Positions 12,444-42,849 of a DNA stretch of 64,000 nt are shown one piece after another. Position 1 is the first letter of the stretch. Each line of letters starts with the position of its first letter. The translations under genes were made by a program, and so were the position numbers. Origin of the DNA: Squalus acanthias (lineage: Eukaryota); contig CM059431.1 in assembly GCA_030390025.1 (NCBI GenBank), positions 147,004,001 through 147,068,000 of the forward strand, written 5' to 3'. Under the pieces are notes generated by a model. It was given only the letters and a program-made list of their open reading frames with translations, made no database searches and had not been told where the DNA came from.

Positions 12444-15400
12444 TCAGACCGTGTCTTGGTCCCTGGGTCGCTTGCTTCGTACCGGCGGGCTGGCAGAGCT
12501 CCTGTCGCCTGGATCGACCTGAGGGGGACTGCGGAGATCGTGGCTCCGGGTGCAGGCCACCACAGGTGCAGAGCTGGCTTCATCCTGCTCAGTTGACGGT
12601 GATTGACCAGCGTCCTGGCTTCGGGTGGCCATCCGGCGGGGATTGCTCTGTTCCTCGGGTTGATCCGGCGGAGTAGCTGGCAGATCACTTGATGTCCCGG
12701 GTAGGGCGTCATCCTCAGAGGAGTGCAGAGTATCGGCGTCGTTTATATGGATCTCTCTATCGATTGGGTCCGTGGGACCGGTTGGGCAGGGAGCCAGATC
12801 CCAAAGTGAAACTGTGGAATTCCGGCCATCAGGGTACCGCACGTACGCATCTGTAGGATTGACATCCGTTAGCTCCACCTTGTCGATGAGGGGATTACTC
12901 TTGGAGGACGGACGAATCTTCGGAGCAGCACGGATCCAGGAGCTGCCAACCATGATGGTAGGGACGTCCCATGAGTGGAGCGATGCTGGAACCCGAAGAA
13001 TTGTTCGTAAGGAGTAACATTGGTGGATGTAGAAAGAAGAGACCTGATGCAATGCATCGCGTCAGAGAGCAGAGTTTCCCACTGCTGGTCTGGTAGATTG
13101 TGTGGCCTCAGTGCAAGACGAACAGCGTTCCAAATGATAGCGTTGTATCTCTCAACCTGTCCGTTTCCAATATGATGATACGGTGTAATTTTACTTTTGG
13201 CAATTCCCCGTTGGGAAAGATAACTTTTGATTTCGCTTGACATGAAGGAGGGAACCCGATGAGTGGATGAAATTGGCCATACCGTAAAGGGAAAAGACCT
13301 GATCGAGGCATTTGATCACTGTGGAAGTAAGCATATTGGGACAGGGGAAAGCAAAGGGAAAGCGTGAATATTCGTCCACCATAGTAAGCAAGTAGGTGTT
13401 TCGCGTTGAGGAAGGCAATGGCCCTTTAAAGTCAATGCTGAGTCGTTGCATAGACTGTGTAGCGTGTATGAGCGAGCCATCCGACGGACGGAAGAACTGT
13501 GGTTTTAATTCCGATCAAATTCTACAAGCGGAGCATGTTCTTTTCATGTCTTCCGTAGAAAATGTGAGATTTTTAGATCACACAAAGTGCAACATACGGG
13601 TAACGCCAGGGTGGCATAAGTCAGTATGAAGATTTGCAAGAGTCGAAGTTGACATGGAAGAGCAGAATGCAAGCATGAGTGTATCCGGGGCCACATTCTC
13701 CTTGCCGGGTAGATATTGTATGATGTAGCCAAAAGCGGCCAATTCCATCCTCCAGAGCTGTATTTTGTTATTCTTGATTTCAGTGCATTTCCTGTTATCC
13801 AGCATAAAGGCCACCGAGCGCTGATCGGTTATGAGCGTGAAATGGCGACGGGCGAGAAAATTACTCCATTTACATAGTGCCTCAATGATAGCCATAGCCT
13901 CCTTCTCGACAGGAGGGTACTGGAGGTCGCTACCCTGCAAAGTTCTAGACAGAAAGGCAACGGTTCCACGACCTTGATTCAAGGTAGCCAAGATCACCAC
14001 CTCCGATGCATTGCACTCGACAACGAATGGGAAATTTTCATCGATGGAATGAAGCGCGGCTTTTTCCAGTTGTTGCTTGAGGAGGTCGAATGCTGAAATA
14101 GCCCTCGCCTCCAACGGAAATGACTTTGCGTGAAGCAGGGGCTGGATGTTGTCGGAAAAGTGAGGTATCCACTTCGCATAATAGGCGAACATGCCGAGTG
14201 CCCAATGAAGAGAGCTGAGATTCGTAGGAGGAGGGAGCTCCTGAAGCGGACGAAGTCACTCCGGATCCGGTTTGATGACACAATTGCCAACCCAATGGCC
14301 AAGGATGTTGACTGATGGTACTGATTTCACAGATTTGAACTCATTTAAGGTTAAGTTGCGACGACGGAGAAATTCAAGAAATTTCTGGAGTTTGGCATCA
14401 TGCTCCTTCTGGTCATGAGCAGTAATGGTGATATTACCAAGATATGGAAAAGTGTCTGTTAAGTTCTCCTGTTTGACTAGGCTATCCATTGCCCGTTGAA
14501 AGACGGCCACCCCATTGGTGACCCCGAATGGAAGGCGACGAAACTGGTAAAGCAGACCACTGGCCTCAAAAGCCGTATACTTTTCGTCAGAGTCCTTTAT
14601 CGGTACTTGATGGTATGCGCTCTTTAAGTCAAACGTTGAAAATACCTTGTAGTTAGCAAGGTTATTGACCATGTCATCGATGCGTGGTAGTGGGTAGGCA
14701 TCCAGGTCGGTATAATGGTTAATAGTTTGCGAGTAGTCGATGCAAATACGTTTCTTGTGTTGCTTCAGAGAATTTTTAACAACGACGACTTGAGCCCATA
14801 GAAACATAGAAACTTGGAAGATAGGAGCAGGAGTAGGCCTTTCGACCCCTCGAGCCTGCTCCGCCATTCAATGAGATCATGACTGATCATCCAAAATCAG
14901 TACCCTGTCCCTGCCTTTTCCACATATCCCTTGATCCTTTTAGCCTTAAGAAATATATGTAACTCCTTCTTGAATATATTTAATGAATTCGCCTCCACTG
15001 CCTTCTGTGGCAGAGAATTCCACAGGTTCACCACTCTCTGGGTGAATAAATTCCTCCTCTTCTCTGTCCTAAATGGCTTACCCCTTATCTTCAGACAGTG
15101 ACCCCTGGTTCTGGGCTCCCCGACCATCGGGAACATCCTTCCTGCATCTAGTCTGTCTAGTCCTGTTAGAATTTTATAAGTTTCATTGAGCCCGCCAGGA
15201 AGATGAACATGGCTCAATGATACCGTCAGCTAGAAGGCGAGAGATCTCTGCCTCGATAAAGGAAAGGTCATCTTGGCTGAAACATCGTGATTTAGTGGCT
15301 ATGTGCTTACATCGGTGGGGGAAAGATTGACAAACAAGGAGGGCTCGTCGAGTGAAGCCGCCGAAAGTGCACAAAACGGTACTTTGGAAATCGTAAGCTC

Positions 15401-15841
15401 CGGCTTTGATCCTCCAAACTCGAAAGTGAGTCTTTCGTGTTGTTTTTGGTAATCCTGTCCCAGGAGCACATCACTGCATAGGTTTTTGAGCACCCTGAGC
15501 CGGGTAGAGAAATAAGTGCGGCCATTGCGAATAAGGTCGACAAGACAAAAGCTGGCAGAGTTAGTGGTCAGTGTCGTCAGTGCCATTGCAATTTCCCTGT
15601 CCGAGGCGTAAATACGAAGTTTTAACTTACTGACAGCCTACTCACTGATGAAGCTGTCAGAGCTGCATGAGTCGAATAATGCACTCAAAATGTGTCCATT
15701 TACCGAAAACTTTGTGCAGCATGGGACATGCTTTGGGGAAAACAGCTGTGATGGGAGGAGGGGCAGTTTTATCCTTGACAGCTGTAACATTAGTAGTGGC
15801 TCTTGGGGGAGGAGCAGCTTTATAGATGACAGCTGTAACAT
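12444..15841 (-). pseudogene. pol: Gypsy pol remnant (PR-RT-RH-IN) with multiple frameshifts and stops
   Basis: ALFDSCSSDSF (PR); DAYPLPRIDD, LPFGVTNG and YLGN (RT with a mutated YxDD); ECNAS...EKEA...TDQRS (RH); IDFKGP...VDEYSRF...GNGQVERYN (IN). Confidence 0.9.
14798..15185 (-). mobile_element. CR1 3' fragment nested in the Gypsy RT
   Basis: (CATAGAAA)n tail and the YKILTGLDRLDAGRMFP ORF2 end, flanked by duplicated TTGAGCCC (14790-14797, 15186-15193). Removing it restores WRAQ-VVVVKN. Confidence 0.92.
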
Positions 15842-15859
15842 TATTAGTGCCTCTTGACT

Positions 15860-16626
15860 GACATACTTTCGAGAATGGTCTTTCTTACTGCAATAATTGC
15901 AGATTGCATTACGAGCAGGACAACATTTTCTATAATGAAATGCACCGCCACAGAAGAAACACTTACTTACAGATTGCCAAGATGCCGCTAGGGTACGGTC
16001 GTCATCAGCTAGGATAGAGTCATCATCAGTGAGGGCTTCCGCCTGAGGCTTATCGGAGGTGTCACTAAAAGTGATAGCAGCAGCCTATGCTTGTGGTAAA
16101 AGAAAGGCATCTGCTTTTTTTTTGCCAAGTATTGAGAATATGCCTGGTTATAGGCAGTTTGGAACTCGTGGGTTTTATTCTCCAGCCGACTCTGGCGTAT
16201 GAAGGGAGACGCAATTCCATTAATAAAAGAATCACGAATTAACTCCTCCTGGTACTGCTCAGCTGAGAAAGCCTTGAGATTGCAATCTTTGCTGAGCCAG
16301 CGAAGCTTTTGAAGGGATTCGTCAAGTGATACACCGGGTTGTTGTCGAGTTGTGGCCAGTAGGTGGGGAGCAAAAATTTCGTTTGGGGCCTTAACATATA
16401 GGTGCTGTAAGATTCGGATAGCGGAGTCATAGTTTACACAATCTTCGATATAGTCAAACACATAAGGGGATACATAACTGGCAATTATCTCTAACTTATC
16501 AGGAAGATTCTCACCACATGCACTGAGGTAGTTGCTGAAGGTACGATACCAGTGTTTCCATACCTTAGCAGTTGTAGGTGAATTCGGGTCCAGGTCAAGA
16601 CAAGCGGGTCGGAGTAGTTTCTCCAT
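15860..16626 (-). pseudogene. gag: Gypsy gag remnant
   Basis: ORF 16009-16626 (MEKLLRP...WKHW...IRDSFINGI), plus a frameshifted CFFCGGAFH...CPARNAICNYCSKKDH knuckle at about 15860-15965. Confidence 0.85.
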
Positions 16627-16726
16627 GATGGATTAATTAGTATCTCAGGTTCCCTTCTACCGTTTGACTCGTAGCCGTCTGTTCCCAAAACTACTCAGAG
16701 CGTGGAGCAGGTCCAAATGATTAAAT

Positions 16727-16949: not shown

Positions 16950-19665
16950 TTGTATAGGGTCACCACCTGTAATGTTAGAGTAGGGTCAACACTGCTAATG
17001 TTAGTTTGGGGACACTACCAGTAATGCTAGAGTATGGTCACCACCAGTAATGTTAGAGTAGGGTCACACCAGTAATGATGAAGTACGGTTACCATCAGTA
17101 ATGATAATGTAGGGTCACCACCAGTAATGATAGAGTAGGGTTTCCACCAGTAATGTTAGTGTAGGGTCCCCAGAATAATATTAGATTAGGGTCACCAGAA
17201 TTAATGTTATTCTAGGGTCACCACCACTAATGATAGAGTAGAGTCACCACGAGTAATGTTAGTGCAGGGTCACCACTAGTAATGCAAGTGTAGGTTCGCC
17301 ACTACTAATGTTAGAGTAGGGTCACCACCAGTAATGTTAATGTAGGGTCACCATCTGTAATGTTCCAGTATGGTCACCACCTGTAGTGTTAGTGTAGGGT
17401 CAGCACCAGTAATAATAGAGTAGATTCACCACCACTAATGTTAGGGCAGGGTCATCACCAGTAATGTAAGAGTAGGGTAAATACAAGTAATGTTAGAGTA
17501 GGATCACCTCCAGAAATGTTATAATAGAATCAGCACCAGTAAAGATAGTGTAGGGACACCACCAGTAATGATAGAGTAATGTCATCACAATTAATGTTAG
17601 AGTAGGGTCACCACGAATAATGCTATACAAGGATCACCGCCTATAATGTTAGAGTAGGGTCATCACGATTAATGCTAGCGTAAAGTTACCATCAGTAAAG
17701 TTAAAATGGGTCGCCGTCAAATTGTTACATTATGATCACCATCATGTTAGAATAGGATTAACGCTATTAATTTTAGAGTGCGTTCCTCAGCAGTAATGCT
17801 ATAGTACAGTACTCATCAGTAACGTCAGAGTATGGAGACCACATGTACTGTTAGAGTAGATGCACCACCAGTAATATTGGAGAAAGATCACCACCACTAA
17901 TGTTAGATTCGGTCACCATCAGTGTTAGAGTAGAATAAACACAAGTAATATTACAGTAGCGTTGCTGCCATTAACGTTTTAGTTGTGTCAACAGCAGTAA
18001 AATTAGAGTAGATTCACCCTCACTAATGTTAGTGCGGGTCACGTCTAATGATGTTACATTAACATCAACACCAGTAATGTTAGATAAGGGTCACCACCAG
18101 TAACGATAGAGTAGGGTAACCACCAGTAACGATAGTGTAGGCTCACCACCAGTAATGTTAGAGTTGGGTCAACAACATTAATGATAGATTAGAGTCATCA
18201 CCAATAATATTAGAGCAGGGTCATCATCAGTAATATTCGAATAGAATCACAGCCAATAATGTTAGAGTAGTCTCAACACCAGTAATGCTAGAAGAGGGAC
18301 ACCTCGAGATATGTTAGAGTAGAGTCACCACCAGTAATGATACAGTAGAGTCACCACGAGATATGTTAGAGCAGAGTCACCACCAGTAATGTTAGAGTAG
18401 AGTCACCACCAGTAATGTTACAGTAGAGTCACCACGAGATATGTTAGAGCAGAGTCACCACCAGTAATAATAGAGTAGTGTCATCACCAGTAATATTAGA
18501 GTAGAGTCATCACTAGTAATATTCGAATAGAATCACCGCCAATAATGTTAGAGTAGTCTCACCAGCATTAATGTTAGAGTAGGGTCACCACCAGTAATGT
18601 TAGAGTCGGGTCACCACGAGATATGTTAGAGTAGGGTCACCACCAGTAATGTTAGAGTAGCATCACCACGAGATATGTTAGAGTAGGGTCACCACCAGTA
18701 ATGACAAAGTAGAGTCACCACCAGTAATGATAGAGTAGAGTCATCACCAGTAATATTAGAGTAGGGTCATCACTAGTAACATTCGAATAGAATCACCGCC
18801 AATAATGTTAGAGTAGTCTCACCACCAGTAATGTTAGAGTAGGGTCACCACCAGTAATGTTAGAGTACGGTCACCACGAGATATGTTAGAGTAGAGTCAC
18901 CACCAGTAATGTTAGTGTAGGGTCACCAAGAGATGTGTTAGAGTAGAGTCACCACCAGTAATGTTAGAGTAGGGTCACCATCATTGATGATAGAATAGGA
19001 TCACCGCCAGTAATGTTAGTGTAGGGTCATCACCAAAAATATTTGAATAGGATTAACGCCATTAATGATAGGATAGTGCCAACACCTTTAATGTGAGATT
19101 AAAGTTACCATCAGTAAAGTTAGAGTGGGTCGCCGCCAAATAGTTAGATTATTATAACCACCATGTTAGAATAGAATTAACTCTATTCATTTTAGAGTGC
19201 GATCACCAGCAGTAATGTTAGAGTACAGTATTCATCAGTAACGTCAGAGTATGGATACCGCATGTAAATTTAGAGCAGATGCTCCACCAATAATATTGGA
19301 GTAAGGACAACACCACTAATGTTAGATTCCGGTCACCATAAGTGTTAGAGTAGAAAACACACAAGTAATATTACAGTAGGGTTGCCGCCATTAACGTTTT
19401 AGTAGTGGCAGCAGCAGTAAAATTAGAGTTGATTCACCATCACTATTATTAGTGCGGGGTCACGACTATTGATGTTAAATTAACATGAACACCAGTAATG
19501 TTAGAGTCGGGTCGCCACAATTAATGTTAGATTAGTGTCACTGCCATTAATGTTAGAGTACGGTCACCACCAGTAACGATGGAGTAGGCTCACCACCAGT
19601 AATGTTAGAGTAGGGTCACCACCAGTAATGATAGATTAGGGTCACCACCAGTAATGATAGAGTAG
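16950..19665. repeat. 26-bp satellite (GTAATGTTAGAGTAGGGTCACCACCA), left part
   Basis: Direct tandem copies of variable divergence; the array resumes in phase after the ERV. Confidence 0.95.
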
Positions 19666-20235
19666 TGTTGTAGGGGCTAATCGGAGCCTTAAGCGGACTA
19701 ACCATGAAGGAGAGTCGACGCGCTACCCGACTTAGCCCGACTGAGCAATAAAACTCAAACACCAATTTACACGGTTAAATGCGGGAGTACACTTTATTCA
19801 GAGCGCTCTGGGAGAGAATTGATGCACCCACGTGCAGTCACCGACCTCTCAAATAAGTCACTCTGGGGCACAGTATTTTATACATCCATCATTGATTACA
19901 TCGTGCTCACATGAGCATGTGATAGTCATTAGAATCCAATCAATTTTATGTATACAATTGTTAAGCATAGTAAATCAATTAACGTCAGGATACAGTTGAT
20001 GTGATCAGCCTCGTCTATGTGACAGTGTTATCTCGAGCCCTGTACCAGGATACAGTTGATGTGATCAGCCTCGTCTATGTGACAGTGTTATCTCGAGCCC
20101 TGTATGTTGCAACGTTGTCTGACAAGGCAGACTGCCAATCCATTGCAGAAAAGTCCTGTGTCAGCGAATTTAAAGTTCATTAACTGGATGAGTTTTTCTT
20201 CTCCGACATTTCTTTAATAATTTTCTCCTCCAACA
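19666..20235 (-). repeat. ERV 3' LTR (570 bp; 60-bp tandem duplication in U3; AATAAA at 19793-19798 on minus)
   Basis: By eye, identical to 27169-27678 except for one substitution and the duplication at 19987-20106. Confidence 0.96.
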
Positions 20236-20313
20236 CTCCCTTCTGTTGGTCCGGGGGCACGACCTTCTTGCCCCCAGGAAACCACTGCTCCGTGCCTCTT
20301 CACGGGGTCGACG

Positions 20314-21710
20314 CTACAGCCACTGGCTCATCTCTTGAGGGCTGGCTACCCCGGCGACGGTGTCATGCGTTTCCTCCATGGGCTGGAGATCGGTGTATCC
20401 TTCCTTTTCTTCGTCTTTGAGCAACGGCTCCTCTTCCCGTACGGCGCTGACTGACATTAGCTGGGTTGTGGCAATCTTACAACATGTCTTTAACAAGGTT
20501 ATCAAGCAACATACAGCGACACATATCATCACTATCACAACCATTACGTGCATAATCCAGGGGCCCCATTCTGTTAGCCCCAACCATTCTAGCCATGACT
20601 GTGTCGGTTCCCGGTGTAATTTCTTAATCTCTTCCTTCATGTGATTTACCAAGTTGGTGATGTTTTCCGAACTATCAGGGATGTAAGTACAACACTCTTG
20701 CCCGATCACCGCGCAAGTGCCTCCTTCCTTTGCAAGCAGGTAGTCCAGTGCCATCCTGTTTTGCATGGCCACTGTCCTGAGGGCTACCATTTCTGCGCTT
20801 ATTTCTGCAAGGGCTTCTGTGGTGTCGTTGGCTACCTTCTCGAGAATTTGGGCATTGTTAATGATTTCCCGTGCTAATTTACCCACCCCCCAGTGGGGGA
20901 AGGCGACGGCGAAGAATCGCTCAGTCTCCGTAATTCCTTGCCTGGTTCGATAACAATGGTGCTCCATGAGGGATTTGAGATGGTATACATAAGGCATAAC
21001 GTATCCCAGGTAACATGACCCGGTCCAATCTCTGGGCAGCCATGGGTACGCCTTGTGCCCGCATATAAAATATGTTCCATTGTAGGCCGTCATATCCATG
21101 TTTGCCCGAAAGATAGTGAAACCCATCTGACTATCTGTGGCCCGTCGGGTCCCATTCCACGGTTGGTTAGCAGACCAGTGGTATTAAACCACCAGCTTTC
21201 AAATGCCGTGTTCCCCTCCTCATATGTCACAAAGGTTTGGGTGCAATTACTATTTCCTGCCTCTAGGTTCACCTTCACCCCTCTACTTACACTCCTTGTC
21301 CAACATATTTCCCCGACGGGTCTTCCTACCCCGGTTGTGTTTGTTAGGGCGAAGAAGGGTGGATCTTTACTAGAGTTGTACTTGGGTTTGTAACATCCCT
21401 TAAATTGTTCCAATGGGTACCCTCCACCTCGGAACTCCTCCCTCGTGATGTCATGATAGCTGTTCTGGTCATTAAGCGCAAATTCTGCTAGTTCCGTGAG
21501 ATTCAGGGGTATGGGCCGCAGTGGTATCCCACCCTTACTGTGGATCGGAATATGACTACACACCCAACAGCTACTTTGCCCTGTCTCCTTTACGTATTCA
21601 TACGACATATATACAAAGGTATTCACCTGGAGCTCTCTTCGCTTACGGGAGCCCCTTTCCATTCCCGAAACAATGCATGTTAACGCTATTAAACACAGTG
21701 GTATCCCCAT
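20314..21710 (-). pseudogene. env: ERV envelope, gamma-type, one frameshift between about 21090 and 21185
   Basis: Signal peptide MGIPLCLIALTCIVSG, CWVC motif, ISD MQNRMALDYLLAKEGG, CX6CC (CAVIGQECC), and TM helix WIMHVMVVIVMICVAVCCLITLL. Split over two overlapping frames. Confidence 0.93.
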
Positions 21711-21909
21711 TTTTACTTGGAAGCAGGCACTGTCTATCACCGCGTCGTTGCCGCTTCTGGTAGCACTCTTGTATTAACATACAAACATAAAAACACAGTA
21801 GTTAGTACACCAAATGCAATAAGCCAAAGCACGAATGCAAACAGGTAAGGTAATTGGACATTTACGGGTCGCTTGATCTGTAGGTAAAAGAAACACAAAG
21901 AAGCGCCCA

Positions 21910-24900
21910 TTAGTTCATCTTTTCTCCATATATTTTTAATTGTGTCCAATGTTTCCAGACTCCCTTCCCCCTTATGTCCAGACAGGCACAGGTATCACCA
22001 CTAATTATAATTTCGTAGGGTCCGCTCCATTTTGGGGCGAAGCCTGGCTTGTCAGGCAGGACCTTCAGCATCACTTTGCTGCCCGCTGACGGCACGGAGG
22101 GTGTCATGACCCCCTCCTGTGCCTGATCCTGAAGTTCCTGATTGTCTCGTACGGCTTGGCGCATCCCCTTCAGTTGGGTGCTAAGCTCTAAGAAATAACG
22201 CCGTAGTCTGTCCTTTAAGGGGCCCACATCAGCCCCACCTGTTATGATGCCTTCTGGTAATTGCATCGCCCTTCCTGTCATTAGTTCATAAGGGGTCAGG
22301 CCTGTCGTACGATTCGTGGTGGCTCGTAACTTCATTAGGATAAGGGGTAAAACCTCAACCCATGTTTTCCCAGATTCCTGTATTGCCTTTGCTAAAGCGT
22401 TTTTGAGTGTTCGATTCATTCTTTCAACCATTCCCGAGCTCTGGGGGTGGTAAGGGATATGGAACTTCTGTTTGATCCCCATCAGCTGACAAATATTCTT
22501 TACTACACTCCCTGTAAAGTGCGTTCCTTGGTCAGAGTCGATTTGCAAGGGCACTCCCCACCGCGGGATTACTTCCTCGGCCAGGATTCTGGCTACCGTT
22601 AAGGCCGTGCAATTCCGCGTTGGGAAAGCTTCTACCCACCTTGTGAACTGGTCAATTATCACAAGGCAGTATATTTTTCCGTGGGACTGGGGAAGTGGTC
22701 CCGTAAGATCAATTTGTATGTGCTCCCAAGGACCTCGGGGTCTTGGCTGGTGGCCCATTCTAATTTTAATAGGCCGGCCAGGATTATGCTGAGCACAAGT
22801 GATACATCGCTGACAGTGCCTCGCGATGTCTCTTCCCATCCCCTTCCACCACCAATCCTTACTTAATAAGGAGCTCATTGCCTCTCTCCCTGTATGTGAA
22901 ATACCGTGATGTATCTCTAGCAGAGTCTGTTGTATGCACTCCGGTGCTACTACTTTACCTTCTTTTCGCCAGACTCGATCGGATCCTACTCCAGCTCCAT
23001 TTCTTACCCATGTTTCCTTTTCCGTGTCTGATGCTTCGTCTTGGACTTCCCAGATCTTTATTTCGTTCTCCGGGCTGTCTACGCTGCCCACCAGTACTTC
23101 GTTTATCTCCTCCTGTTCTAGAGCTGCCTGTGCTGCCCAATCAGCCGCCTGGTTCCCCTGGTGGCTGTCCCAGTCTGGGCTTGTCTTGTCTGGTTCTTTC
23201 TGATGGGCCTTAATTTTGATAACTGCCACCTGTTTAGGTCTTTTGCTTGCTTCTAGCAAGGCCTCTATTCGTCCCTGATGTTTGATGGGGTTACCTCCTG
23301 TGGTTATATACCCTCTACGTCCCCATGCTGTCATGTAGTCATGCACTACCCCGAAGGCATACCGGCTATCTGTGTATATATTGACTACCTGGTTCTTTGC
23401 TTCATTCAATGCTTGAGTCAACGCGACCAACTCTGCTACTTGGGCTGATAAGCTACCGTCTAACCGTCCAGATTTAACTACTTCCATCTTACTATTAACT
23501 ACTGCCCACCCGGTTCGGGGTTGTCCATTAATATATTTACGGGATCCATCTACATAGAATGTTTCCTCCACTTCCTCTAGAGGGGTGTCTTTGATAATCT
23601 CTTCTCCAATGTCCTCGTCTATTTTTTTTTACAACTGTGTGGGGCTCCTGTTCCCAGGATCCCCTCAGCTGGGTTCTCCCCTATGTCTCTGACTATGATG
23701 ATAGACTCGTTAGGGGGTAATAGAACTGCTTCCCACTTAGCTCTTCTCATGTTTGAGACAGATCTTAATTTTCCAGTATTTAGCATTTCCACCAAGGTAT
23801 GCTTGGTGTGCAAGACTATGTTCCCGGTCATTACTATAGGTTCGCTCACCTTTACTGCCCATGCTGCGCAGTCCAGTGCCGCTATACATCGCGAGAGTCC
23901 GGAGACTACCGGTCCTTCTGCGGTCGAGTAGTATGCCACTGGTCTGCGCTTATCGCCATGGTCCTGGGTTATCACAGCGGTGTAGAACCCGCCCTCATTG
24001 TCACAGTGAATATGGAAAGGTTTGTTCATATCTGGCAGCCCTAGTCCCGGGGCTGACAGTAACTCCTTCTTCAACTGTCCGTAAGCTTTTTCCTGTTCTG
24101 GGCCCCACTCTATGGACTCAAGGGCAGGCCTTCCTCCCTTTACTAACCTTTGGATAGGCTCAGCTATCTTAGCGAACCCGGGGACGAAGTTCCTGCTGTA
24201 GTTAAAAAGTCCTAAGACCTTCCTAACTCCCCTTATTGTCACTGGTCTGGGCATATCCCAGACTGCAGCCTTCCTATCCGTTGGCATCTCCTTTGTCCCT
24301 TGGGAAATGAGATGCCCTAGATACGTGACTTTGAACTTTCCAATCTGGGCCTTCCTAGGGCTAGCCTTCAGTCCTGCGTCCCTTAATGCTGTCAGTACTA
24401 TCTTCAGGGCCTTATTATGACCTGGAACTTTGTCCGAGGCTATCAGGATATCGTCAACGTACTGGAGGACCGTGCTCCCTGGTGGGAGCTCTGCACCCTT
24501 TAAAATATTACTCATTACCCGATGGAAGATCGCGGGGCTATTATGGAATCCTTGTGGCAGGCGGGTCCAGGTGTACTGTCTGTCTCCTACTGTGAATGCA
24601 AATTTCTCCTGAGACTCTGGATCCAATGGGAGAGCCCAGAATCCGTTGGCTATGTCCAACACTGTGAATATCTTGTGTTCGGGAGCCAGTCCGTTCAAAA
24701 TTGTGGACGGGCTGGCGACTATGGGGTGAAGCTTGGGCGTCACTTTATTCAAGGCCGTATAGTCAATTGTCAGCCTGTAACTCCCATCTGGCTTTTTAAC
24801 TGGCCACGTAGGGGAATTGGTTGTGCTCGTGGTTTCCCGAAGGACACCTCTTTCTACCAATCCCTTTACTATGTCTTCTACAGCTTTCTTTGCTTCTGGT

Positions 24901-25469
24901 TTAATGGGATATTGTCGGTGGGGTTTGTGTTCGGGTCCTGGGACGACAATGGGGTCAATCTTAACCATTCCTGTGTCTAACTTATCTTTTGCCCATACTC
25001 CTTGTACCGAGGCACACGTGTCCCCGTACCCATTGGTTTCCACTTGCCAGTCCCGGCTTACCGCTGTAGCCACTCCCACTTTGGTGGTATTATTGGTCAG
25101 ACAGTGCATACTAGTTTTATTCCCGTCCAAGTTTGGCCAAGTTATTTTCTTCTTACCACAATCAATTAATACCTGGTATTCTTTCATTAAGTCATTTCCC
25201 ATTATTGTTCCCTCATTATTCTTACACACGTAAAATCGCATAGGGATGAAAAAGTTATCTATTTCTACCAATTGGGTTGTGCTCAGAAAGGCAGGTGTTT
25301 TATCACCGCCAATCCCTGTGATGTAGACCTTTCTGTCCGTTATCGGGATGGGAAGGTCGGTCACGGATACTGAGGCACCGGTGTCCACTAGCATCTCACA
25401 CGGTCGGCCCCCTACTAGTGCAGACACATACATCCTTCCTTTGTCTCTTTTTACGGGGGCCGCTGACTG
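21910..25469 (-). CDS. pol: ERV pro-pol (PR-RT-tether-RNase H-IN), interrupted only at the A9 run (23622-23630)
   Basis: LVDTGA (PR); LPQGFHNSP and YVDD (RT); FYVDGS...AELVAL...YTDS (RH); HHCC, D-D-E and GPY (IN). In frame with gag after a single TGA. Confidence 0.93.
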
Positions 25470-26804
25470 TCACTGTGTCTCTTTCCACTGTTGATATAGT
25501 CTCTTTTCTTCGGGGGTCATGGTGACGTGGGTCGTCTCAGGTCTGCCATGTTTACTGAAACAAGTGGCCTCAGTATGGCCCTTCTTATTACAGTAAGTAC
25601 ATGTCTTCTTAGCCATACAATCTCTAATAAAATGTCCAGGCTTCCCGCAACCATGACATGCCCCCTTGGGTCCCACTGCCTGTTTTACCGCACTTACACT
25701 TTCCTGTTTAACCTTGACCGTACCTTCCTCTTTGGCTTTTAACCCGTCTACCCCACAAGCCCACTCTACTAGGTCGTCGTAATTCCTGGTTGTTACTACG
25801 CCCATCTTGATGATAGCCTGGTGTGCGGGAGACAAGCCATCTTTAAAGGCCTGAATGAAAGCGGGGTCAGTTCTTGCCGGCCCTGGTTGGCCTGATGACT
25901 CTCCATAAACAATAAACAGCCTTTCTCCATATTCGGAGGCCGCCTCGCCCTTTTGCTGCTTACAGGACGTTATCTTACTCCAATTAGTTGGGGCCTCTCC
26001 TAACACCCGCTGGATTTCTGTTTTAAACAGATTAAAGGGAGCCTGTTGTCGGTCTATTGTATCTGCCAATGGACATTGTTCAGTCCATCGACCGGTCTTA
26101 TAATCCGTATTGGCCTGATTGGGGGTGGTCTGCGTGAGGCGCCATCGGTCGACCGGACATGCTGCCCGGACCAACTGATGAACGTCACGCAGGTGGAGGC
26201 TGTGTCCCAGCCAAACCATATCTAGGTTTGCCCAGAACTTGGTGTTGGCACTTCGTGTTTGTAAGTTCCCCAGGTCTTTCAAAATCTGTTGTCTTTCTCC
26301 CGGGGTAAAAGGCTGAAAATCCGCCCTTGCCCCGGCGGCACCAGGCTGGCCCCTCATTTTAACGGGGGCCGCGAAATATTCTTCTGTTGTATCCCCAACT
26401 GTTTCTTCAGTTGGGGCTGTTGGTCCGGAAAGTCCGTACGGGGGGAGTGGATCTGTGTTACACCCCGTCCACCTTCCGGGACACATTCTACTTTGTTCTT
26501 GATTTATTCCCTCTAGTATTTCTATCTTCTTTTTTAAATCTGCTATTTCTCTGTTTTTGGCCTTCTCAGTCTCTCGGACCTTATCTACTTGCTCGATTAG
26601 TCCCGCCAATTGGTGTACCAAAAGAACTCCCGTTTTCTTGGTTTTCTCCCTTTTTTGCTTACGTACCCACTCTCGTTGTGACTCTAATGACTGGCTAACA
26701 TCCCAGCCATCTTTCTGCATTCTGTCTATCAGCGAACGTCTATCTGTCATGTAACTATTAATAAGGGACCCCGGGGGCCCCATCTTAATGTCCTTACCTG
26801 ACAT
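25470..26804 (-). CDS. gag: ERV Gag, 444 aa, intact
   Basis: PTAP and LPPY late-domain-like motifs, MHR-like CKQQKGEAASEYGERL, and two CCHC knuckles (CHGCGKPGHFIRDC, CTYCNKKGHTEATC). Confidence 0.94.
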   Translation of the reverse strand: MSGKDIKMGPPGSLINSYMTDRRSLIDRMQKDGWDVSQSLESQREWVRKQKREKTKKTGVLLVHQLAGLIEQVDKVRETEKAKNREIADLKKKIEILEGINQEQSRMCPGRWTGCNTDPLPPYGLSGPTAPTEETVGDTTEEYFAAPVKMRGQPGAAGARADFQPFTPGERQQILKDLGNLQTRSANTKFWANLDMVWLGHSLHLRDVHQLVRAACPVDRWRLTQTTPNQANTDYKTGRWTEQCPLADTIDRQQAPFNLFKTEIQRVLGEAPTNWSKITSCKQQKGEAASEYGERLFIVYGESSGQPGPARTDPAFIQAFKDGLSPAHQAIIKMGVVTTRNYDDLVEWACGVDGLKAKEEGTVKVKQESVSAVKQAVGPKGACHGCGKPGHFIRDCMAKKTCTYCNKKGHTEATCFSKHGRPETTHVTMTPEEKRLYQQWKETQ

Positions 26805-27148
26805 CGCCCGTCCGCTCTCCGATCACACTCTCCAGTAAACACTCACCGCCTCTCTTCACTCTCCCGTCCTTCTGGACTCGTGAACTCGTTTACCGATGTG
26901 TCTAGTTGCCTGGAGTTCCGGATCTCGCAAGCACCGCCCGCAGACTTTATCACAGGTTTTACTCTGTACCTTTAACCTACGGCCCAAAAATTTGACAGTG
27001 TAATGCAGAATACTCACAACGGTTCCCCCTCTGCCTTCCGAGAATACCCGGACCAAAAACCCCTATAAAGTGTACTCTCGCAAATCCCCTCAGATTCTTT
27101 CGGTTACTTGAGCCCGTTAACACTTGATCAGGGTGTCGGTACTCAGTA

Positions 27149-27166
27149 ACCCTGCTCGCAGCGCCA
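27149..27166 (-). promoter_or_regulatory. ERV primer-binding site, tRNA-Ser-like (TGGCGCTGCGAGCAGGGT)
   Basis: Starts with TGG 2 nt inside the 5' LTR. Its complement ACCCTGCTCGCAGCGCCA closely matches vertebrate tRNA-Ser 3' ends as I recall them. Confidence 0.8.
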
Positions 27167-27168
27167 AT

Positions 27169-27678
27169 TGTTGTAGGGGCTAATCGGAGCCTTAAGCGGA
27201 CTAACCGTGAAGGAGAGTCGACGCGCTACCCGACTTAGCCCGACTGAGCAATAAAACTCAAACACCAATTTACACGGTTAAATGCGGGAGTACACTTTAT
27301 TCAGAGCGCTCTGGGAGAGAATTGATGCACCCACGTGCAGTCACCGACCTCTCAAATAAGTCACTCTGGGGCACAGTATTTTATACATCCATCATTGATT
27401 ACATCGTGCTCACATGAGCATGTGATAGTCATTAGAATCCAATCAATTTTATGTATACAATTGTTAAGCATAGTAAATCAATTAACGTCAGGATACAGTT
27501 GATGTGATCAGCCTCGTCTATGTGACAGTGTTATCTCGAGCCCTGTATGTTGCAACGTTGTCTGACAAGGCAGACTGCCAATCCATTGCAGAAAAGTCCT
27601 GTGTCAGCGAATTTAAAGTTCATTAACTGGATGAGTTTTTCTTCTCCGACATTTCTTTAATAATTTTCTCCTCCAACA
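27169..27678 (-). repeat. ERV 5' LTR (510 bp; TATAAAA at 27379-27385 on minus)
   Basis: TG...CA termini; matches the 3' LTR. Confidence 0.96.
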
Positions 27679-30450
27679 GTAGGGTCATCGCAGTTAAAAT
27701 TAGAGTAGGGTCATCACCAGTAATATTAGAGTACGATCATCACTAGTACTGTTAGAGTAGGGTCAAAACCAGTAATGATAGAGTAGGGTCACCACCAGTA
27801 ATGATAAAGTAGGGTCATCAGCAGTAATGTTATTGTAGGGTCAACACCAGTAATGATAGAGTAGGGTCACCACCAGTAATGTTAGAGTAGCGTCACCATC
27901 AAACATTTTAGAGTAGTTTCACCAACAGTAATGATAAAGTAGGGTCATCAGCAGTAATGTTATTGTAGGGTCACCACCAAAAATGTTAGAGTAGGGTCAC
28001 CACCAGTAATGTTAGAGTAGCGTCACCATCAATCATTTTAGAGTAGGGTCACCAACAGTAATGAAGAAGTAGGGTCAGCACCAGTAATGTTAGAGTAGGG
28101 TCACCACCAGTAATGTTAGAGTAGCGACACCATCAATAATTTTAGAGTAGGGTCACCAACAGTAATGAAGAAGTAGGGTCACCACCAGTAATGATAGAGT
28201 AGGGTCATCACCAGTAATATTGGAATATAATCACTGCCAATAATTTTAGAGTAGAGACACCGCCAGTAATGATAGAGAAGTGTCTTCAACAGTAATATTA
28301 GAGTAGCGTCATCACCAGTAATATTAGAATAGAATCACCGCCAATAATGTTAGAGTAGAGACACTACCAGTAATGTTAGAGTCGGGTCATCACCAGTAAC
28401 GTAAGCGTAGGGTCACCGACAGTAATGTTACAGTAGGGTCATCACCAGTAATGATAGTGTGGGTTCACAACCAGTAATGAAAGAGTCGGGTCACCACCAG
28501 TAACGTTAGTTTAGGGTCACCACTAGTAATGTTAGAGTAGGGTCACCACCATTAATGTTAGATTAGGGTCACCAAAAGTAATGATAGAGTAGGCTCGCCA
28601 CCAGTAATGTTAGAGTAGAATGACCACCAGTAATGATATAGTAGAGTCATCACCAGAAATGTTACTGTAGGGTCACCAATAGTAATGTCAGTATAGGGTC
28701 ACCAATAGTAATGTTAGATTAGGGTCACCAGCTGTAATGTTAGTGTAGTGTCAGCACCAGTAATGGTAGTGTCGAGTCACCACCAGTAATGTTAGGGTAG
28801 GGTCGCCACCAGTAATGTTAGAGTAGGGTCACCAACAGTAGTGTTAGAGTAGGGTCACCACCAGTAATGTTAGAGTAGGGTCATCACCAGAATGTTAGGA
28901 TCGACTCACCACCTGTAATGATAGAGTAGGGCCACCATCAGTAATGTTAGAGTCAGGTCATCACCATTAATGTTAGAATATGGTCACAACCAGTAATCAA
29001 AGAATAGGATCACCGCCATTAATATTAGTGTACTATCCCCACCTTAATGTTAGTGTAGGGTCAACACCAATAATATTTGAATAGGATTACCGCCAGTAAT
29101 GATAGGATAGGGCCAACACCATTAATGTTAGCGTATAGTTACCATCAGTAAAGTTAGAGTGGGTCGCCGCCAAATAGTTAGATTATTATCACCAACATGT
29201 TAGAATAGGATTAACACTATTAATTTTACAGTGCGATCACCAGCAGTAATGTTAGAGTACAGTACTCATCAGTAACGTCAGAGTATGGAGACCACATGCA
29301 ATGTTAGAGTAGATGCACCACCAATAATATTGGAGTAATGTCACCACCACTAATATTAGATTCGGGTCACCATCAGTCTTAGATTAGAATAAACACAAGT
29401 AATATTACAGTACGATTGCTGCCATTAACGTTTTAGTAGTGTCAATATCAGTAAAGTTAGAATAGATTTACCATCACTAATGTTAGTGCGGGTCACGACT
29501 ATTGATGTTAAATTAACATCAACAGCAGAAATGTTAGAATAGATTCATCGCAAGTAATGTTAGAGTAGATTCACCACAGTAATGTTAGAGTAGGTTGTAC
29601 ACCAGAAATGTTACAGCAGGGTCACCCCCAGTTATAATAGCGTAAGTTCACCTTCAACAATGATAGAGTACAGTCACCACCAGTAATGTTAGAGTTGGGT
29701 CTTCACCATAATGTTAAAGTCGGTTCACCCACCTGTAATTATAGAGAAGGTAACCACCAGTAATGTTAGAGTAGAGTCACCACCAGTAATGTTAGAGTGG
29801 GTTCACCCACCTGTAATGATAGAGTAGGGTAACCACCAGTAATATTGGACTAGGGTCACCATCAGTAATGTTAGAATAGAATCACGACCAGTAATGTTGG
29901 GGTAGGGTCACCACCAGTAATGTTAGAGTAGAAACACCACCAGTAAGGATAGATTGGGGCCACCATCATTAATGATAGGGTAAGGTCATAAGCATTTATG
30001 TTAGAGTAGGGTCACCACCAGTAATGTTTGAATAGGATCACCGCCAGTAAATTCAGATTAGTATCACCACTAGTTATGTTAGTGTAGGGTCATCACCAAT
30101 AATATTTGAATAGGATTAGCGCCAGTAATGTTACGATAGGGCCAACACAATTAATGTTAGCCTATAGCTACCATAAGTAACGTTAAAGTGGGATCACCAT
30201 CAGTAATGTTAGAGTAGGGCATCACCAGTAATGTTCGAGTGTGGTCAGAATTTGTAATGCTAGATTAATGTCACCACCGGTAATGTTACAGTAGCGTCCC
30301 CACTGCTAATGTTGGAGTGGATTCACCACCAGTAATGTTAGATTAACATCACCACCATGAATGTTAGAATATGGTCATTACTGATAGTGTTAGAATAGGA
30401 TCATCACCAGCCATGTTCGAGCTGAGTCACCACTAGTAATCATTACAGTA
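27679..30450. repeat. 26-bp satellite, right part
   Basis: Same unit as 16950-19665. Confidence 0.95.
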
Positions 30451-30845: not shown

Positions 30846-32554
30846 ATGATACGGCCAACAATTCTACAGATAAGGGACATTTACTACCATTTGCTCGCAG
30901 CCTTCGGTGTTCCCGGTAAGTCAATGTATCCTGTTGACTAATAGTTGTTGACTATCTCAGTGTTAATGTAACAGATTCCGAGAATGTCCTCATTGCAGAA
31001 TCATTGATCCACCGGGATCAGTCGGTGAATATCAGAGGGAATGAAGCCACTCCGCGCGGCCGCTGAGGCGCTGTTCTGGTCGCTCGATCGTGGGCACCGG
31101 ACGCTCAACCTTCCTCCCTATACTGAGGGAGGGCGAGGCTGATTCACCGGCCCCTCCTACAGTACATAGATCACTAAAGAATGTGTTGCTCATTGCCCAT
31201 AGTAATCATCTGTTTCGCACCTTTGTCCTCTATCTATTTTAAGTTGATAATTCCTGGCACTTCAGCCACCTCCACCCAACACTGGACTTTGGATGGTAAT
31301 TTGAGAAATAACTGTTGCTCGCGGAGTTGCTCCCCTCCGCTCGGCAGCGTTTCGAATTAAATTGAACTGTTTTCTCTAAGCTGAATGTATTATTTGAATT
31401 ATATCTTTCCATTAATTGCCGTGAAATTATATTTCATACTTGACTGAAGTTTGCTGCAAGGACGGCGAATTTTCAGTCCCTCGATATTGAACTTTCAATG
31501 AGTTCATTTGTTTAAATAAAGTGTCGTTACCCTCGATTATATTAATGTTAAAAAATCTATGCGCATAACGCTGAATAGGGACAGTACCGAACATTTCCCC
31601 ACAATAAGCTGTGAGCTTTATCCGACTATCCCCGTTACTGACCTCTTCCACCAGTTTCTCACAGCGAACCTACTGACAATCCTGATTCTCTCCAGAGGAA
31701 ACTGCGGCCTTTCCAAATGTATCTCTGTTTACATGGTGGCCATGGCAACAGCAGATCTACTGGTCATGATCATCAGTATATTAGTGAACCGCATTATCAG
31801 TCATCACTTTCCACATTCCTTCCTGTCCTACAATTCCGTCTGTAAGATCATTATGTACATGCAATGTGTCACCCTGTATGTGTCGGTGTGGTTTACAGTC
31901 TCGTTCATATTTGACCGATTTGTAGCTATATCTTGTGAGACGTTTAAAACAAAGTATTGCACAGTGAGAACTGCGGCCGCGATTATAGCAACGGTCTCTG
32001 TCCTGATCTGTGTACAGAGCCTTCCTTTTTGGTTTGCATTTGAACCTGAGAGAATAATTCACAATGTTCACTGGGGTTGCCGTGCCAGAGTGGAGTTTTT
32101 TTCATCGCCTGCAGGTGCAGCATACTCCTGGTTGGAAAGTATTTTGGTTGCTTGGCTTGCTTTTGCTTTGATATTACTATTTAATTGTTTGACAGTCAGA
32201 CGCATTTTAGTGGCCAGTAGAGCCCGCAGGGGACTCCGGGGTCACAGCAGTGAGAATCAGAGCGATCCAGAGATGGAGAACCGAAGGAAATCCATCAGTT
32301 TACTGTTCACTGTATCGGGCAATTTTATACAGTTGTGGCTGAAAGCTATCGTTAGTTTTTTAACTACCAGACTGACAAACACGGCGCAGTATCGAAGCGA
32401 TTATGCAGCCCCTGCCTATATTGCCACTGAAACCGGATATATGCTCATGTATTTGAGCTCCTGTACAAACACATGTATTTATGCAGCTACTCAACCTAAA
32501 TTCAGGGAAGAGCTGAAGAATGTGGTGAAATGGCCTTGCACATTAATTGGTTAA
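30846..32554 (+). CDS. GPR139-like class A GPCR, two exons (30846-30915, 31665-32554), 319 aa
   Basis: Exon 1 MIRPTILQIRDIYYHLLAAFGVP ends at a G|GTAAGT donor, and the acceptor is tttctcacag|CG. The spliced frame is open, with AMATADLLV, FDRFVAI, DPEMENRRKSI and NTCIY motifs. A paralogue, so no symbol is given. Confidence 0.88.
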
Positions 32555-35289: not shown

Positions 35290-36043
35290 TGATTCTCCTG
35301 TCCCTCTTTCTAATTAAATAGTTGTTGTGTTCCCTTGGGTTTCTCTATTTCTAATCAAAGAAATACTGTGTTTCCCTGACATTCCGTGCAGTCTATTTGT
35401 TATTAAACAGTAACTATGCCCCCCTGTGTCCTCCTTCTATCTACATGGTTATTATGTTCCATGAGGCCAGTTTCTAATTAAACCGTTACTGTGTTCTCCT
35501 AAAATTCCTGTTCTCTATTTATAATTAAATAGATAGTTTATTTCCTTAAGTTCCCCCATTCTCTGTTCCTAATCCCCGTGTTCCCCATTTTTAATTAAAC
35601 AGTTACTATGTTCACCTATCCCCCAATCCCCATTTATAATTATACAGTTACTGTGTTCCACTACATTCAACTTTATTCTATTCCTAATTAAAGAGTTACT
35701 GTGTTCCACGACATTCAACTTTATTCTATTCATAATTAAAGAGTTACTGTGTTCCACGACATTCAACTTTATTATTATTCTAATTAAACAGTTACTGTGT
35801 TCATCTAAATCCCCCTCTTCCCCATTTATAATTAAACAAATACTGAGTTCTCCTATATCCACCGTTCCCCATTTATAATCATCAGTTACTGTGTTCCCCT
35901 ATATACTCCGTTCCTCATTTATAATTAAACAGTTACTGTGTTCCCCTATATTCCACTATTCCCCATTTATATTTAAACAGTTACTGTATTCTCCAAAGTT
36001 TCACTGTACTTTATTTGTAATATAACAATGACTGTTTTCCACT
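35290..36043. repeat. AT-rich ~45-48-bp degenerate minisatellite (ataattaaacagttactgtgttcc core); resumes at about 37669-37800
   Basis: ttactgtgttccac occurs at 35648, 35696 and 35744. Confidence 0.85.
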
Positions 36044-36095
36044 AAAATGAGAAGTCGCACAACACCAGGTTATAGACCAACAGATTTATTTAAAA

Positions 36096-36132
36096 TTACA
36101 AGCTTTCGGAGCTGTCGCCCCTTCCTCAGGTA
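36096..36132 (-). ncRNA. Minimal type-I hammerhead ribozyme motif (Penelope left arm)
   Basis: Reverse complement of the motif at 37544-37580. Confidence 0.75.
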
Positions 36133-37543
36133 GAGTAACTGTGAGAGAATCTATCAGAATTCACAGAATATAAACACAGAGAAAATGCATTCAAATCTTT
36201 CCCTACATCAAAGACACACTAAGAGCACAGCCAAGACAATGAGATGTGTCCCAGGGGATCCAACGTGTCAAAACACCTGCTGGCTGCATATCCTCTCCAG
36301 TTGGCTTTGTTTCTTGTGTTTGTTTTTTTAAAAAAAGCTGGAAAGACCGGCAACGATGTCAAGTCACGTTCTGTATCATGACATGAACCCGATATCCCGA
36401 TTAAGGCCATCCTCATGAGTGCGGAACTTGGCTATCAGTTTCTGCTCGATGATTTTGCGTTGTCGTGTATCCCGAAGGCCGCCTTGGAGAACGCTAACCC
36501 GCAGATCCGAGGCTGAATGCCCCTGACTGCTGAAGTGTTCCCCGGCTGGGAGGCAACCCTCCTGCCTGGCGATTGTTGCACGGTGTCCTTTCATACGTTG
36601 TCTCAGTGTCTGCATGGTCTCGCCGATGTACCATGCTCTGGGGCATCCTTTACTGCAACGTATCAGGAAGACAACGTTGGCCGAGTCACATGAGAATGTA
36701 CCATGTACCTGGTGGGTAGTGTCCCCACGTGTGATGATGGTATCTGTGTCCATGATCTGGCATGTCTTGCAGAGGTTGCCATGGCAGGGTTGTGTGGTGT
36801 CGTGGTCGCTGTTCTCCTGAAAGATGGGTAATTTGCTGCAAACGATGGTACTTTTGAGGTTAGGCGGCTGCTTGAAGGCGAGTACTGGAGGCGTGGGGAT
36901 GGCCTTAGCAAGGTGTTCGCCGTCATCGATGACATGTTGAGGGCTGCAAAGAACATGGAACATGGCGTAGTTTCTCCGCTCCGGGGAAGTACTGGCCGAC
37001 GTTGTCTACCTGATACGTTGCAGTAAAGGATGCCCCAGAGCATGGTACATCGGCGAGACCATGCAGACACTGAGACAACGTATGAACGGACACCGCGCAA
37101 CAATCGCCAGGCAGGAGGGTTGCCTCCCAGTCGGGGAACACTTCAGCAGTCAGGGGCATTCAGCCTCGGATCTGCGAGTTAGCGTTCTCCAAGGCGGCCT
37201 TCGGGATTCACGACAACGAAAAATCATCGAGCAGAAACTGATAGCCAAGTTTCGAACTCATGAGGATGGCCTCAATCGGGATATTGGGTTCATGTCACGA
37301 TACAGAACGTGATTTGACATCGTTGCCGGTCTTTCCAGCTTTAAAAAAAAAAACAAACACAAGAAACAAACCCAACTGGAGAGGATATGCAGCCAGCAGG
37401 TGTTTTGACACGTTGGACCCCCTGGGACACATCTCATTGTCTTGGCTGTGCTCGTAGTGTGTCTTTGATGTAGGGAAAGATTTGAATGCATTTTCTCTGT
37501 GTTTATATTCTGTGAATTCTGATAGATTCTCTCACAGTTACTC

Positions 37544-37580
37544 TACCTGAGGAAGGGGCGACAGCTCCGAAAGCTTGTAA
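37544..37580 (+). ncRNA. Minimal type-I hammerhead ribozyme motif (Penelope right arm)
   Basis: tac-CTGAGGA-a-ggggc(gaca)gctcc-GAAA-GCTT-gta: CUGAnGA and GAAA cores, 5-bp helix II, palindromic AGCT helix III, and helix I tac/gta. Confidence 0.78.
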
Positions 37581-37804
37581 TTTTAAATAAATCTGTTGGA
37601 CTATAACCTGGTGTTGTGCGACTTCTCGTTTTTGTCCACCCCAGTCCAACGCCGGCATCTCCACATCATGTTTTCCACTGAAGTCACGTTTATTCTACTT
37701 CTAATTAACAGTTGGCGTATTCTTCTAAATTCGCCTGCTCTGTATTTGGAATTAAAGAGTTACTGTATTATCGGGAATTCCCCTTTGTTCCCTATTTTCC
37801 GTTG

Positions 37805-41490: not shown

Positions 41491-42089
41491 GTTTGATAAA
41501 AGAGATTTCGGTTGTTTTCCGCTGGAAGCCTCAGTAGTTGTGGAGGAGCGCTCCGTGATAACGGGACAGGTTTAATTTTCAGATGTCTCTGAGCTTAGTT
41601 CTGTTCCGATGCCGCCTCTGACCTGCAGTCACAGATATCTGACAGCGGGCACTGGGCTCTCTTGGGCGACTTCTTCCTGAAGTAAGTCTCCAGCTGCCTG
41701 CTTGCCCTGCTGCTCCTCATCATTTCCCTCTTCCTGCTCTACATAGACTCAGCTACAGGGGAAGTTTCAAGAAATCACTCAGCGCCGGTGGTGATGGAGA
41801 AACCGTTCATGAGCTGGAGATAGTAAAAGGCCAAAAACATGGACTCTTCAGAAAGAAAGTTTCCCCACGTGCACAATCCTAATAAAGTGGTTCCAATTGG
41901 AATCGCTCCTGACAACCGCCAACACGCAGCATCTCTTTGGTGGGAGTTTGTGAATCGGAATACGGACGGTAGAGGGGGAAAGTCCAATATTATTTATCTC
42001 CCATTTTCATCCAGTGAGCAGAGCGGGTGCTGGAAATGTTGGATAGTCAGAAAATCAGCGGCAGACATTTCCACCGCATGTTCTGCATC

Positions 42090-42635: not shown

Positions 42636-42845
42636 AGGGAGAGAGATGGAGTCGGTGGCTACGGAACGGGAATCGTGGCGGGTACCGAACACAATGGCTT
42701 CTGTCTTCCCAAAACTTAGTTGGAGGAGAGTTCTGCTCATCCAGTGCTGGATGTAGGACAAGCAGTGCGACAATTTAGAGACAGTGGAGCTGTCGCGAGA
42801 AGTGGTGGTGAGGTACAGCTGGGTGACGTCAGCGTACATGTTCCC
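42636..42845 (-). mobile_element. L2 LINE RT fragment (inverted)
   Basis: MYADVTQLYL...WMSRTLLQLSFGKTEAIVFG. Confidence 0.85.
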
Positions 42846-42849
42846 CATC

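Follow-up and report, generated by a model that had tools for sequence, protein, structure and literature searches.

The provirus at positions 19666–27678 of a 64,000-nt stretch of Squalus acanthias DNA (contig CM059431.1, positions 147,004,001 to 147,068,000; the whole stretch is henceforth called the window) raises the question of whether a retrovirus is at present entering the germ line of a shark. An earlier note, written from the letters of the window, had described it as a very recent, almost replication-competent endogenous retrovirus (ERV) whose lineage may still be active. Comparison with its copies in the source genome assembly (3.71 Gb) points to a different answer at a probability of roughly 0.8: the window holds one damaged member of a class I ERV family with many copies, whose near-identical siblings probably reached the germ line in a single burst of roughly the age of ordinary allelic variation in the host. 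The family is young, partly intact, and apparently unfixed; it belongs to a known kind of element, and its host class had no invading retroviruses on record.

The provirus and its siblings

The source genome was searched with probes for the long terminal repeat (LTR), env, and reverse transcriptase (RT), and all 40 scored matches of each probe had 98–100% identity (first-look candidates numbered 328, 231, and 502, respectively, which are not copy numbers). Fifty provirus loci were taken from the best matches to the window; 39 carried two full LTRs, and the other 11 lacked two within the stretch fetched. The 39 paired siblings had 39 distinct flanks, with a target site duplication (TSD) in 32 (4 bp in 22, 5 bp in 10) and none in seven. 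Mixed 4-bp and 5-bp target duplications occur inside one integrase family. Between paired LTRs, 41 substitutions were counted in 20,944 columns, i.e., none in 18 pairs, one in 12, two in six, and three, five, and nine in one pair each, and 15 of the 39 pairs were identical including gaps. Open frames were found for gag in 25, for pol in 15, and for env in 26 siblings. All three were open in nine of the 39, i.e., the lineage has intact members, and four of the 39 additionally had identical LTRs. Five of seven single-LTR loci were solo LTRs with a TSD, some solo LTRs being identical to the 5' LTR of the window. A single internal deletion was common to nine of the 39 copies; as it removes protease and RT and these copies nevertheless lie at different sites, the deleted subfamily would have been copied in trans. 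Sibling L004 carries a 1.7-kb insertion in gag without a match in the window.

After setting aside the two outlier pairs (five and nine substitutions), LTR-pair divergence was 27 in 19,793 columns, i.e., 0.14% (37 pairs), and the counts of 18/12/6/1 pairs agreed with one Poisson class (17.8/13.0/4.7/1.4 expected at a mean of 0.73; p = 0.77). Because the counts fit a single class, one past burst is favored over continuing insertion, within the bias of the sample. A divergence of 0.14% corresponds to 0.7–3.1 million years across rates of 1e-9 (our own choice), 5e-10 (named in PMC10699275), and 2.2e-10 (from PMC4422223). At the shark pedigree mutation rate of 7e-10 per generation (PMC10587355), the same divergence amounts to about one million generations, and the first difference in a 530-nt LTR pair is expected after about 1.3 million generations. 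The single LTR difference of the window copy has a wide interval of 0–1.1%.

The window provirus runs from 27678 to 19666 on the minus strand (8,013 nt), is of class I (epsilon-like), and has all hallmarks of an ERV, i.e., paired LTRs, TSD, primer binding site (PBS), polypurine tract, and the order gag-pro-pol-env. The 5' LTR (27169–27678, minus; 510 nt; TATAAA at LTR position 294, AATAAA at 378) and the 3' LTR (19666–20235, minus; 570 nt) both have TG...CA ends and differ by one substitution (19704 versus 27207) and by one additional 60-nt U3 unit, present once in the 5' LTR and twice in the 3' LTR (19986–20104). This extra unit had been read as a duplication and is real; its use as a dating event falls, because the unit number varies from one to three per LTR across the family and is unequal within the pair in five of 39 siblings, i.e., it is a family-wide repeat variant. 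The TSD GTAG stands at 19662–19665 and 27679–27682 (plus), and the host target is a degenerate 26-bp satellite array (16955–30377, no strand) within which the provirus was inserted. The PBS (27149–27166, minus) is complementary at 18 of 18 positions to the 3' end of host tRNA-Ser(TGA). The pattern of this tRNA had 47 matches in the source genome, 46 of them with the matching variant, and none for the reversed control, and ARAGORN reported tRNA-Ser(tga) at all three loci scanned.

The leader (26805–27148, minus) is without ATG and has a putative splice-donor-like motif near 27017. It is followed by gag (25470–26804, minus), which is open, encodes 444 aa with two CCHC knuckles, and ends in a TGA stop; with Pfam, the knuckles alone were detected in gag, and PF03732 had no match at E 0.01. 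Beyond the TGA, pro-pol continues in frame with gag and is split once near 23619–23628, in a mononucleotide run near 23620–23628, into a first piece (23619–25469, minus; 616 aa) with protease, RT (YVDD), and tether domain and a second piece (21910–23628, minus; 572 aa) with RNase H and integrase. The N-terminal env piece (21090–21710, minus) has a hydrophobic leader and CxxC, and the C-terminal piece (20314–21183, minus) has TLV_coat, an immunosuppressive domain (ISD), CX6CC, and a membrane anchor, with the frame break located within 21090–21183. A cleavage site between the surface and transmembrane subunits (SU/TM) is predicted at 20938–20949 (minus), and the polypurine tract lies at 20236–20247 (minus). 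The Pfam domains of the provirus comprise protease, RT, tether, RNase H, integrase, and TLV_coat, and the TM half of env resembles syncytin-2 (best PDB match, E 7e-22) and other gamma-type fusion subunits. The structure reported earlier was thus confirmed, including the LTR substitution at 19704, TSD, PBS, polypurine tract, open gag, and two coding frame breaks. A second basic motif, RKRR, directly behind the Env leader (21626–21710, minus) is kept in 37 of 39 siblings and may be an extra processing site.

The description as almost replication-competent had to be given up for this copy. Neither its pol break nor its env break is shared by any of the 39 siblings. Its predicted SU/TM cleavage site is non-canonical, whereas 38 of the 39 siblings retain a canonical one, and a stretch of five residues at the first catalytic motif of its integrase recurs in no sibling; private positions amount to 9 of 6,933 internal ones. 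The window copy is dead, damaged beyond its two frame breaks. CxxC, CX6CC, the cleavage site, and the immunosuppressive motif are kept in 38–39 of the 39 siblings. The pol break is a possible assembly error, as it is located in a mononucleotide run, and the lesions would have arisen after or at integration, or partly during assembly.

Relatives and the gag/pro junction

Over pro-RT, the nearest named Pol sequences were those of a Mustelus asterias cluster (XP_078069418.1; 76%) and of Heterodontus francisci (XP_067870587.1; 55%), and teleost elements came next after the shark Pol sequences (41–45%). The Mustelus and Heterodontus sequences are automatic gene models for which no description as proviruses was found. 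No close described relative came up in the protein searches, the best named Pol belonging to an uncharacterised Mustelus gene. RT identity to Mustelus was 80% with a sister group support of 100/99, and because the RT differs by 20%, the window element and the Mustelus sequences are regarded as separate families. RT trees were built from 37 and 27 rows, picked from matches with none dropped. They place the element in a clade dominated by shark sequences (97/95), outside the clade of murine leukemia virus (MLV) and reticuloendotheliosis virus and among elements of eel, herring, minnow, frog, and coelacanth, whose Pol identity to the window element was 44–55%. Class I features are present (pro-pol in frame behind a single stop; CxxC, ISD, and CX6CC in Env), and the tree position would fit class I, clade Mu of PMC6001957.

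The genus Gammaretrovirus is characterized by an MLV-clade RT, a UAG-G junction, and an amniote host (host range in the excerpt of PMC6001957), none of which apply to the window element. Members of the genus Epsilonretrovirus have accessory open reading frames (excerpt of PMC13517186), whereas the leader of the window element has no ATG and only 78 nt separate the end of its env from the 3' LTR; because the element is without accessory frames, this genus is excluded. It resembles ZFERV (zebrafish endogenous retrovirus), SSSV (salmon swim bladder sarcoma virus), and WDSV (walleye dermal sarcoma virus) in having gag and pro-pol in the same frame with a stop between them, in a UGA stop as in SSSV and ZFERV, and in its aquatic host (excerpts of PMC6001957, PMC13517186, and PMC8672886). 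It differs from them at the junction (UGA-CAG-UCA in the window versus UGAAGA in SSSV, UGACGA in ZFERV, and UAG in WDSV; excerpt of PMC13517186) and from ZFERV, in the excerpted descriptions, in its length (8.0 kb versus 11.2 kb), with two zinc knuckles and no room for accessory frames. Scans of metagenomes and viral contigs for relatives gave 28 and 2 pattern matches, none of which was confirmed.

The source genome holds at least four related families with a Pol identity of 56–68%, and the primer site of one of them is identical to that of the window. The primer sites of two further related families are ones we take to be those of serine tRNAs. The family at loci L107–L118 (Pol 58%) has an open gag of about 516 aa, a pol of 1187 aa, and a UGA-AAG junction; no env was detectable in 12 of 12 loci, six of the seven LTR pairs found were without mismatch, and many copies score identically, so it looks like an env-less, even younger burst. 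Loci L119–L126 comprise three families: one with a Pol identity of 67–68%, the same tRNA-Ser primer site, an env of about 528 aa, and UGA-CUA-G; one with 65% and another serine-type primer site; and one with 56% and a UAG-GUA junction. In the flank of sibling L046 (L077:1200–4992), another ERV family hosts the sibling insertion, with an open, related env of 422 aa and a decayed pol slot; it has at least 40 copies at 95–99% (3,052 first-look candidates). L077 had been taken as unique host flank and was dropped as host marker once it proved to be this other ERV family.

At the gag/pro junction (25405–25472, minus), TGA CAG TCA is followed by a predicted 8-bp G+C stem. Of the 39 siblings, 32 retain the stop context UGA-CAG-UCA, which is of the CAR-YYA type. 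A review lists type I CAR-YYA for tobacco mosaic virus (TMV), and UGAAGA, UGACGA, and UGAAGU for fish and frog retroviruses, in which it calls readthrough unverified (excerpt of PMC13517186). CAR-YYA is not conserved in the related families of the source genome, which have UGA-CUA-G, UGA-AAG, and UAG-GUA. Four of the five families have such a predicted stem, seven bases past the stop, and it lies within conserved protein motifs; no compensatory change was seen in it by eye. From the layout, readthrough of the stop between gag and pro is likely, and the combination of context and stem is a lead for its signal.

Fixation, other organism labels, and mode of spread

Four public runs were compared at L061, a solo-LTR locus (LTR 4698–5207, TSD GTCC). 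X4 and X16, which both carry label D and come from two samples in two studies, differ from the source genome in the unique flanks at 7/2002 and 4/2422 positions, respectively; organism D is the same species as the source or a sister species. A contig ends at 4692 with 24 letters over in both X4 and X16, and a further X16 contig begins at 5207 with five letters over. These five letters fit on either side of the junction, so that the end-points correspond to a skip of 514 nt (LTR plus TSD). From these contig end-points, and not from a listed joint, we infer that L061 is an empty site in both runs, and hence at least one family insertion looks unfixed or very young. The LTR-pair divergence of 0.14% is at or below the flank divergence of X4 and X16 from the source genome, which agrees with a young integration; the wording "very recent" is apt when measured against allelic variation in the host and need not apply in years.

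At least half of the words of the element were found in 20 of the 24 runs listed, with shares of 0.92 (label A), 0.91 (B), 0.91 (C), 0.76–0.85 (D), and 0.73–0.84 (E), and also in a run that bears no label and in a metagenome from fish gut. No RNA run is listed among these holders; eight runs are RNA by guess. A share of 0.92 corresponds to a difference of about 0.27%, and 0.84 to about 0.56%; for calibration, a single sibling in the source genome had a median of 0.88 and the 39 siblings together had 0.95. Under the four labels besides D, identity of the element was 99.4–99.7%. LTR pieces differed at 1/355 (A) and 0/189 (B) positions and host pieces at 21/417 (A) and 9/359 (B), i.e., 2.5–5% from four short low-depth pieces (13/217 and 6/199 for the single-copy-looking ones), giving binomial p values of 2e-13 (A) and 4e-5 (B) for element versus host divergence. 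Should the host figures be right, the element identity in A and B is beyond what vertical descent can account for. The odds that transmission or introgression stands behind the element under other labels are about even.

Shared ancestry, introgression, mislabelling, or cross-contamination, rather than transmission between species, could likewise account for the other labels, and the chance that they do falls just short of even. The labels A–E are coded and do not give kinship, A, C, and E come from one study (P1), and the host divergence rests on those four short pieces, one of which starts in a repeat, and covers A and B only. However, this divergence is far above the roughly 0.3% of the element in A and B, which stem from different studies, and a depth of 64–69 for LTR contigs versus 2–3 for single-copy ones is unlike low-level contamination.

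That the family is still invading today, with an infectious form circulating and new germ-line insertions arising, is rather unlikely. The 15 identical LTR pairs, the four siblings that are also fully open, the empty site at L061, the solo LTRs identical to the 5' LTR of the window, and the near-identical element under five organism labels are in line with it. Yet the single Poisson class leaves no excess of brand-new copies, and the clock is slow (about 1.3 million generations to the first LTR difference at the pedigree rate of PMC10587355). Present activity of the lineage, which the earlier note had regarded as possible, is therefore not supported, as the LTR differences fit a single past burst.

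Intracellular retrotransposition, with env as a passenger that has not yet decayed, is a similarly doubtful source of the burst. It agrees with the lack of significant purifying selection on env, with the related env-less family amplified in the same genome (12 of 12 loci without detectable env), and with the spread of the deleted subfamily in trans, but env is open in 26 of 39 siblings, on par with gag (25), its motifs are kept in 38–39, and the element is possibly shared between species.

Far less probable is a captured, syncytin-like host gene. A 2026 preprint (bioRxiv 10.64898/2026.05.06.723177) reports 295 open frames for Env from 16 chondrichthyans, many read as captured syncytin-like genes, with a shark cluster that includes squalomorph species, and scored gag via PF03732. 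Its candidates have a signal peptide, R-X-X-R, ISD, CX6CC, and an epsilon-like Pol nearby, as does the window family, whose gamma-type Env motifs and best PDB match to syncytin-2 would suit such a gene. In contrast, its candidates are read as captured genes without gag, whereas env of the window family stands within complete, young proviruses, and dozens of scattered copies have their two LTRs, PBS, TSD, and an open gag; moreover, the window env is broken, one family insertion looks unfixed, and the gag profile of the preprint misses the open 444-aa gag. The open env frames of the window family would likely pass the filters of the preprint, and its Env lists may contain them.

An old, fixed insertion with LTRs homogenised by gene conversion is hardly credible: a tandem satellite site makes unequal exchange plausible and the LTRs differ in their number of 60-nt units, but the internal region is 98–99.7% like dozens of unlinked siblings with few private positions (9/6,933), and the LTR identity of the window copy can be accounted for without gene conversion.

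The preferred reading thus remains a damaged copy of a family that spread in one burst. Its course would begin with transcription from the 5' LTR and priming by host tRNA-Ser(TGA), with Gag-Pol made via readthrough of the TGA in its CAR-YYA context, perhaps aided by the downstream stem, and a gamma-type Env from spliced RNA, and would lead to integration with 4–5-bp duplications. Intact members may have supplied proteins to themselves and, in trans, to the subfamily without protease and RT. An infectious, Env-using phase would be the likeliest source of the burst, because Env is open as often as Gag and the element is present under other species labels.

Several points weigh against this reading. 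Taking the 50 loci from the best matches biased the sample to young, similar copies. The support for an empty site consists of one solo LTR, and organism D may be a sister species. Purifying selection among copies was not significant after correction for transitions and CpG (omega of 1.07 for gag, 0.79 for pol, and 0.76 for env; p = 0.64, 0.17, and 0.22, respectively), and reinfection remains unproven by these data; such an outcome is expected if most differences post-date integration. The RT trees were without a named epsilonretrovirus (none surfaced in the protein searches) and without a class II/III outgroup. The stability of the stem versus shuffles was not significant (z of −0.3 to −1.4), and one of five families was without it. 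Raw pN/pS values of 0.4–0.7 had been considered as evidence of selection and were discarded, as the effect vanished after the transition and CpG correction.

Other features of the window and context of the family

An open, single-exon GPR139-like receptor of a family expanded in elasmobranchs is encoded at 31562–32551 (plus). The best 120 of its 904 relatives all come from sharks or rays (top 78%, Pristiophorus and Heptranchias), which agrees with the shark origin presumed before the source was known. The host is thus an elasmobranch and, judged by the top matches within this expanded gene family, likely a squalomorph shark. A Harbinger-type DNA transposon (59375–62746) has an open 410-aa DDE_Tnp_4 transposase and convergent frames, which presumably resemble a Myb/SANT partner. 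By eye, fragments of a decayed gypsy-type LTR retrotransposon with gag-, RT-, RNase H-, and integrase-like frames were seen at 12444–16632 (minus). A 653-nt inverted repeat (96%) at 36030–37646 has a frame that is GIY-YIG-like by eye and is likely a Penelope-type element; sibling L012 is interrupted by a similar element. Minisatellites with periods of 21, 39, 48, and 49 lie at 1–1602, 2942–3535, and 42088–45715, and by eye the units of 48/49 nt are similar to the 26-nt satellite.

A screen for invading ERVs (ERVi) found 412 in 123 of 2,004 vertebrates, defined by identical LTRs, four intact genes, and insertional polymorphism, with none in 13 cartilaginous fishes and no squalomorph shark among these (PMC10435555, Supplementary Data 8, as excerpted). 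Measured against that definition, the window copy fails in LTR identity and intact genes, whereas family members (4 of 39) have both, and for polymorphism the family has a single solo-LTR locus that looks empty in two runs. Elephant-shark CmiERV proviruses have an LTR divergence of 2.4–3.3% and an age above 50 million years, and CmiERV II/III cluster with epsilonretroviruses (excerpt of PMC4422223); they are chondrichthyan proviruses too, compared here by description, and contrast in divergence with the 0.14% of the present family. The catshark ERV-Spuma (PMC10699275), likewise compared by description, is a chondrichthyan provirus that is foamy-like, unlike the window element. In six chondrichthyan genomes, 2,018 clade I RT loci were counted, and the excerpt of that study describes no intact young families (PMC11089739). 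No published description of the window family or of a similar young shark family was found in the open-access literature.

A more far-reaching reading joins these strands: an infectious epsilon-like retrovirus, recently passed among shark species whose genomes are ten times more divergent than the element, would still be colonising germ lines as the first invading retrovirus of cartilaginous fishes, would use TMV-type UGA-CAR-YYA readthrough, and would have left young copies that make up many of the "syncytin-like" shark env genes. Taken as a whole, we consider it improbable.

For the study of shark genomes, the damaged copy and its siblings have several consequences. Described proviruses of cartilaginous fishes are tens of millions of years old, and the survey of invading retroviruses is blank there. 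Where open shark env frames have been read as captured genes, the family provides a concrete alternative, and its gag is missed by a common gag profile. If the clock of a host is very slow, identical LTRs say little about whether an element is active at present. With population reads, germ-line invasion becomes testable in the most ancient lineage of jawed vertebrates that has adaptive immunity, and if the sharing between species is true, it would document recent retroviral host switching among sharks.

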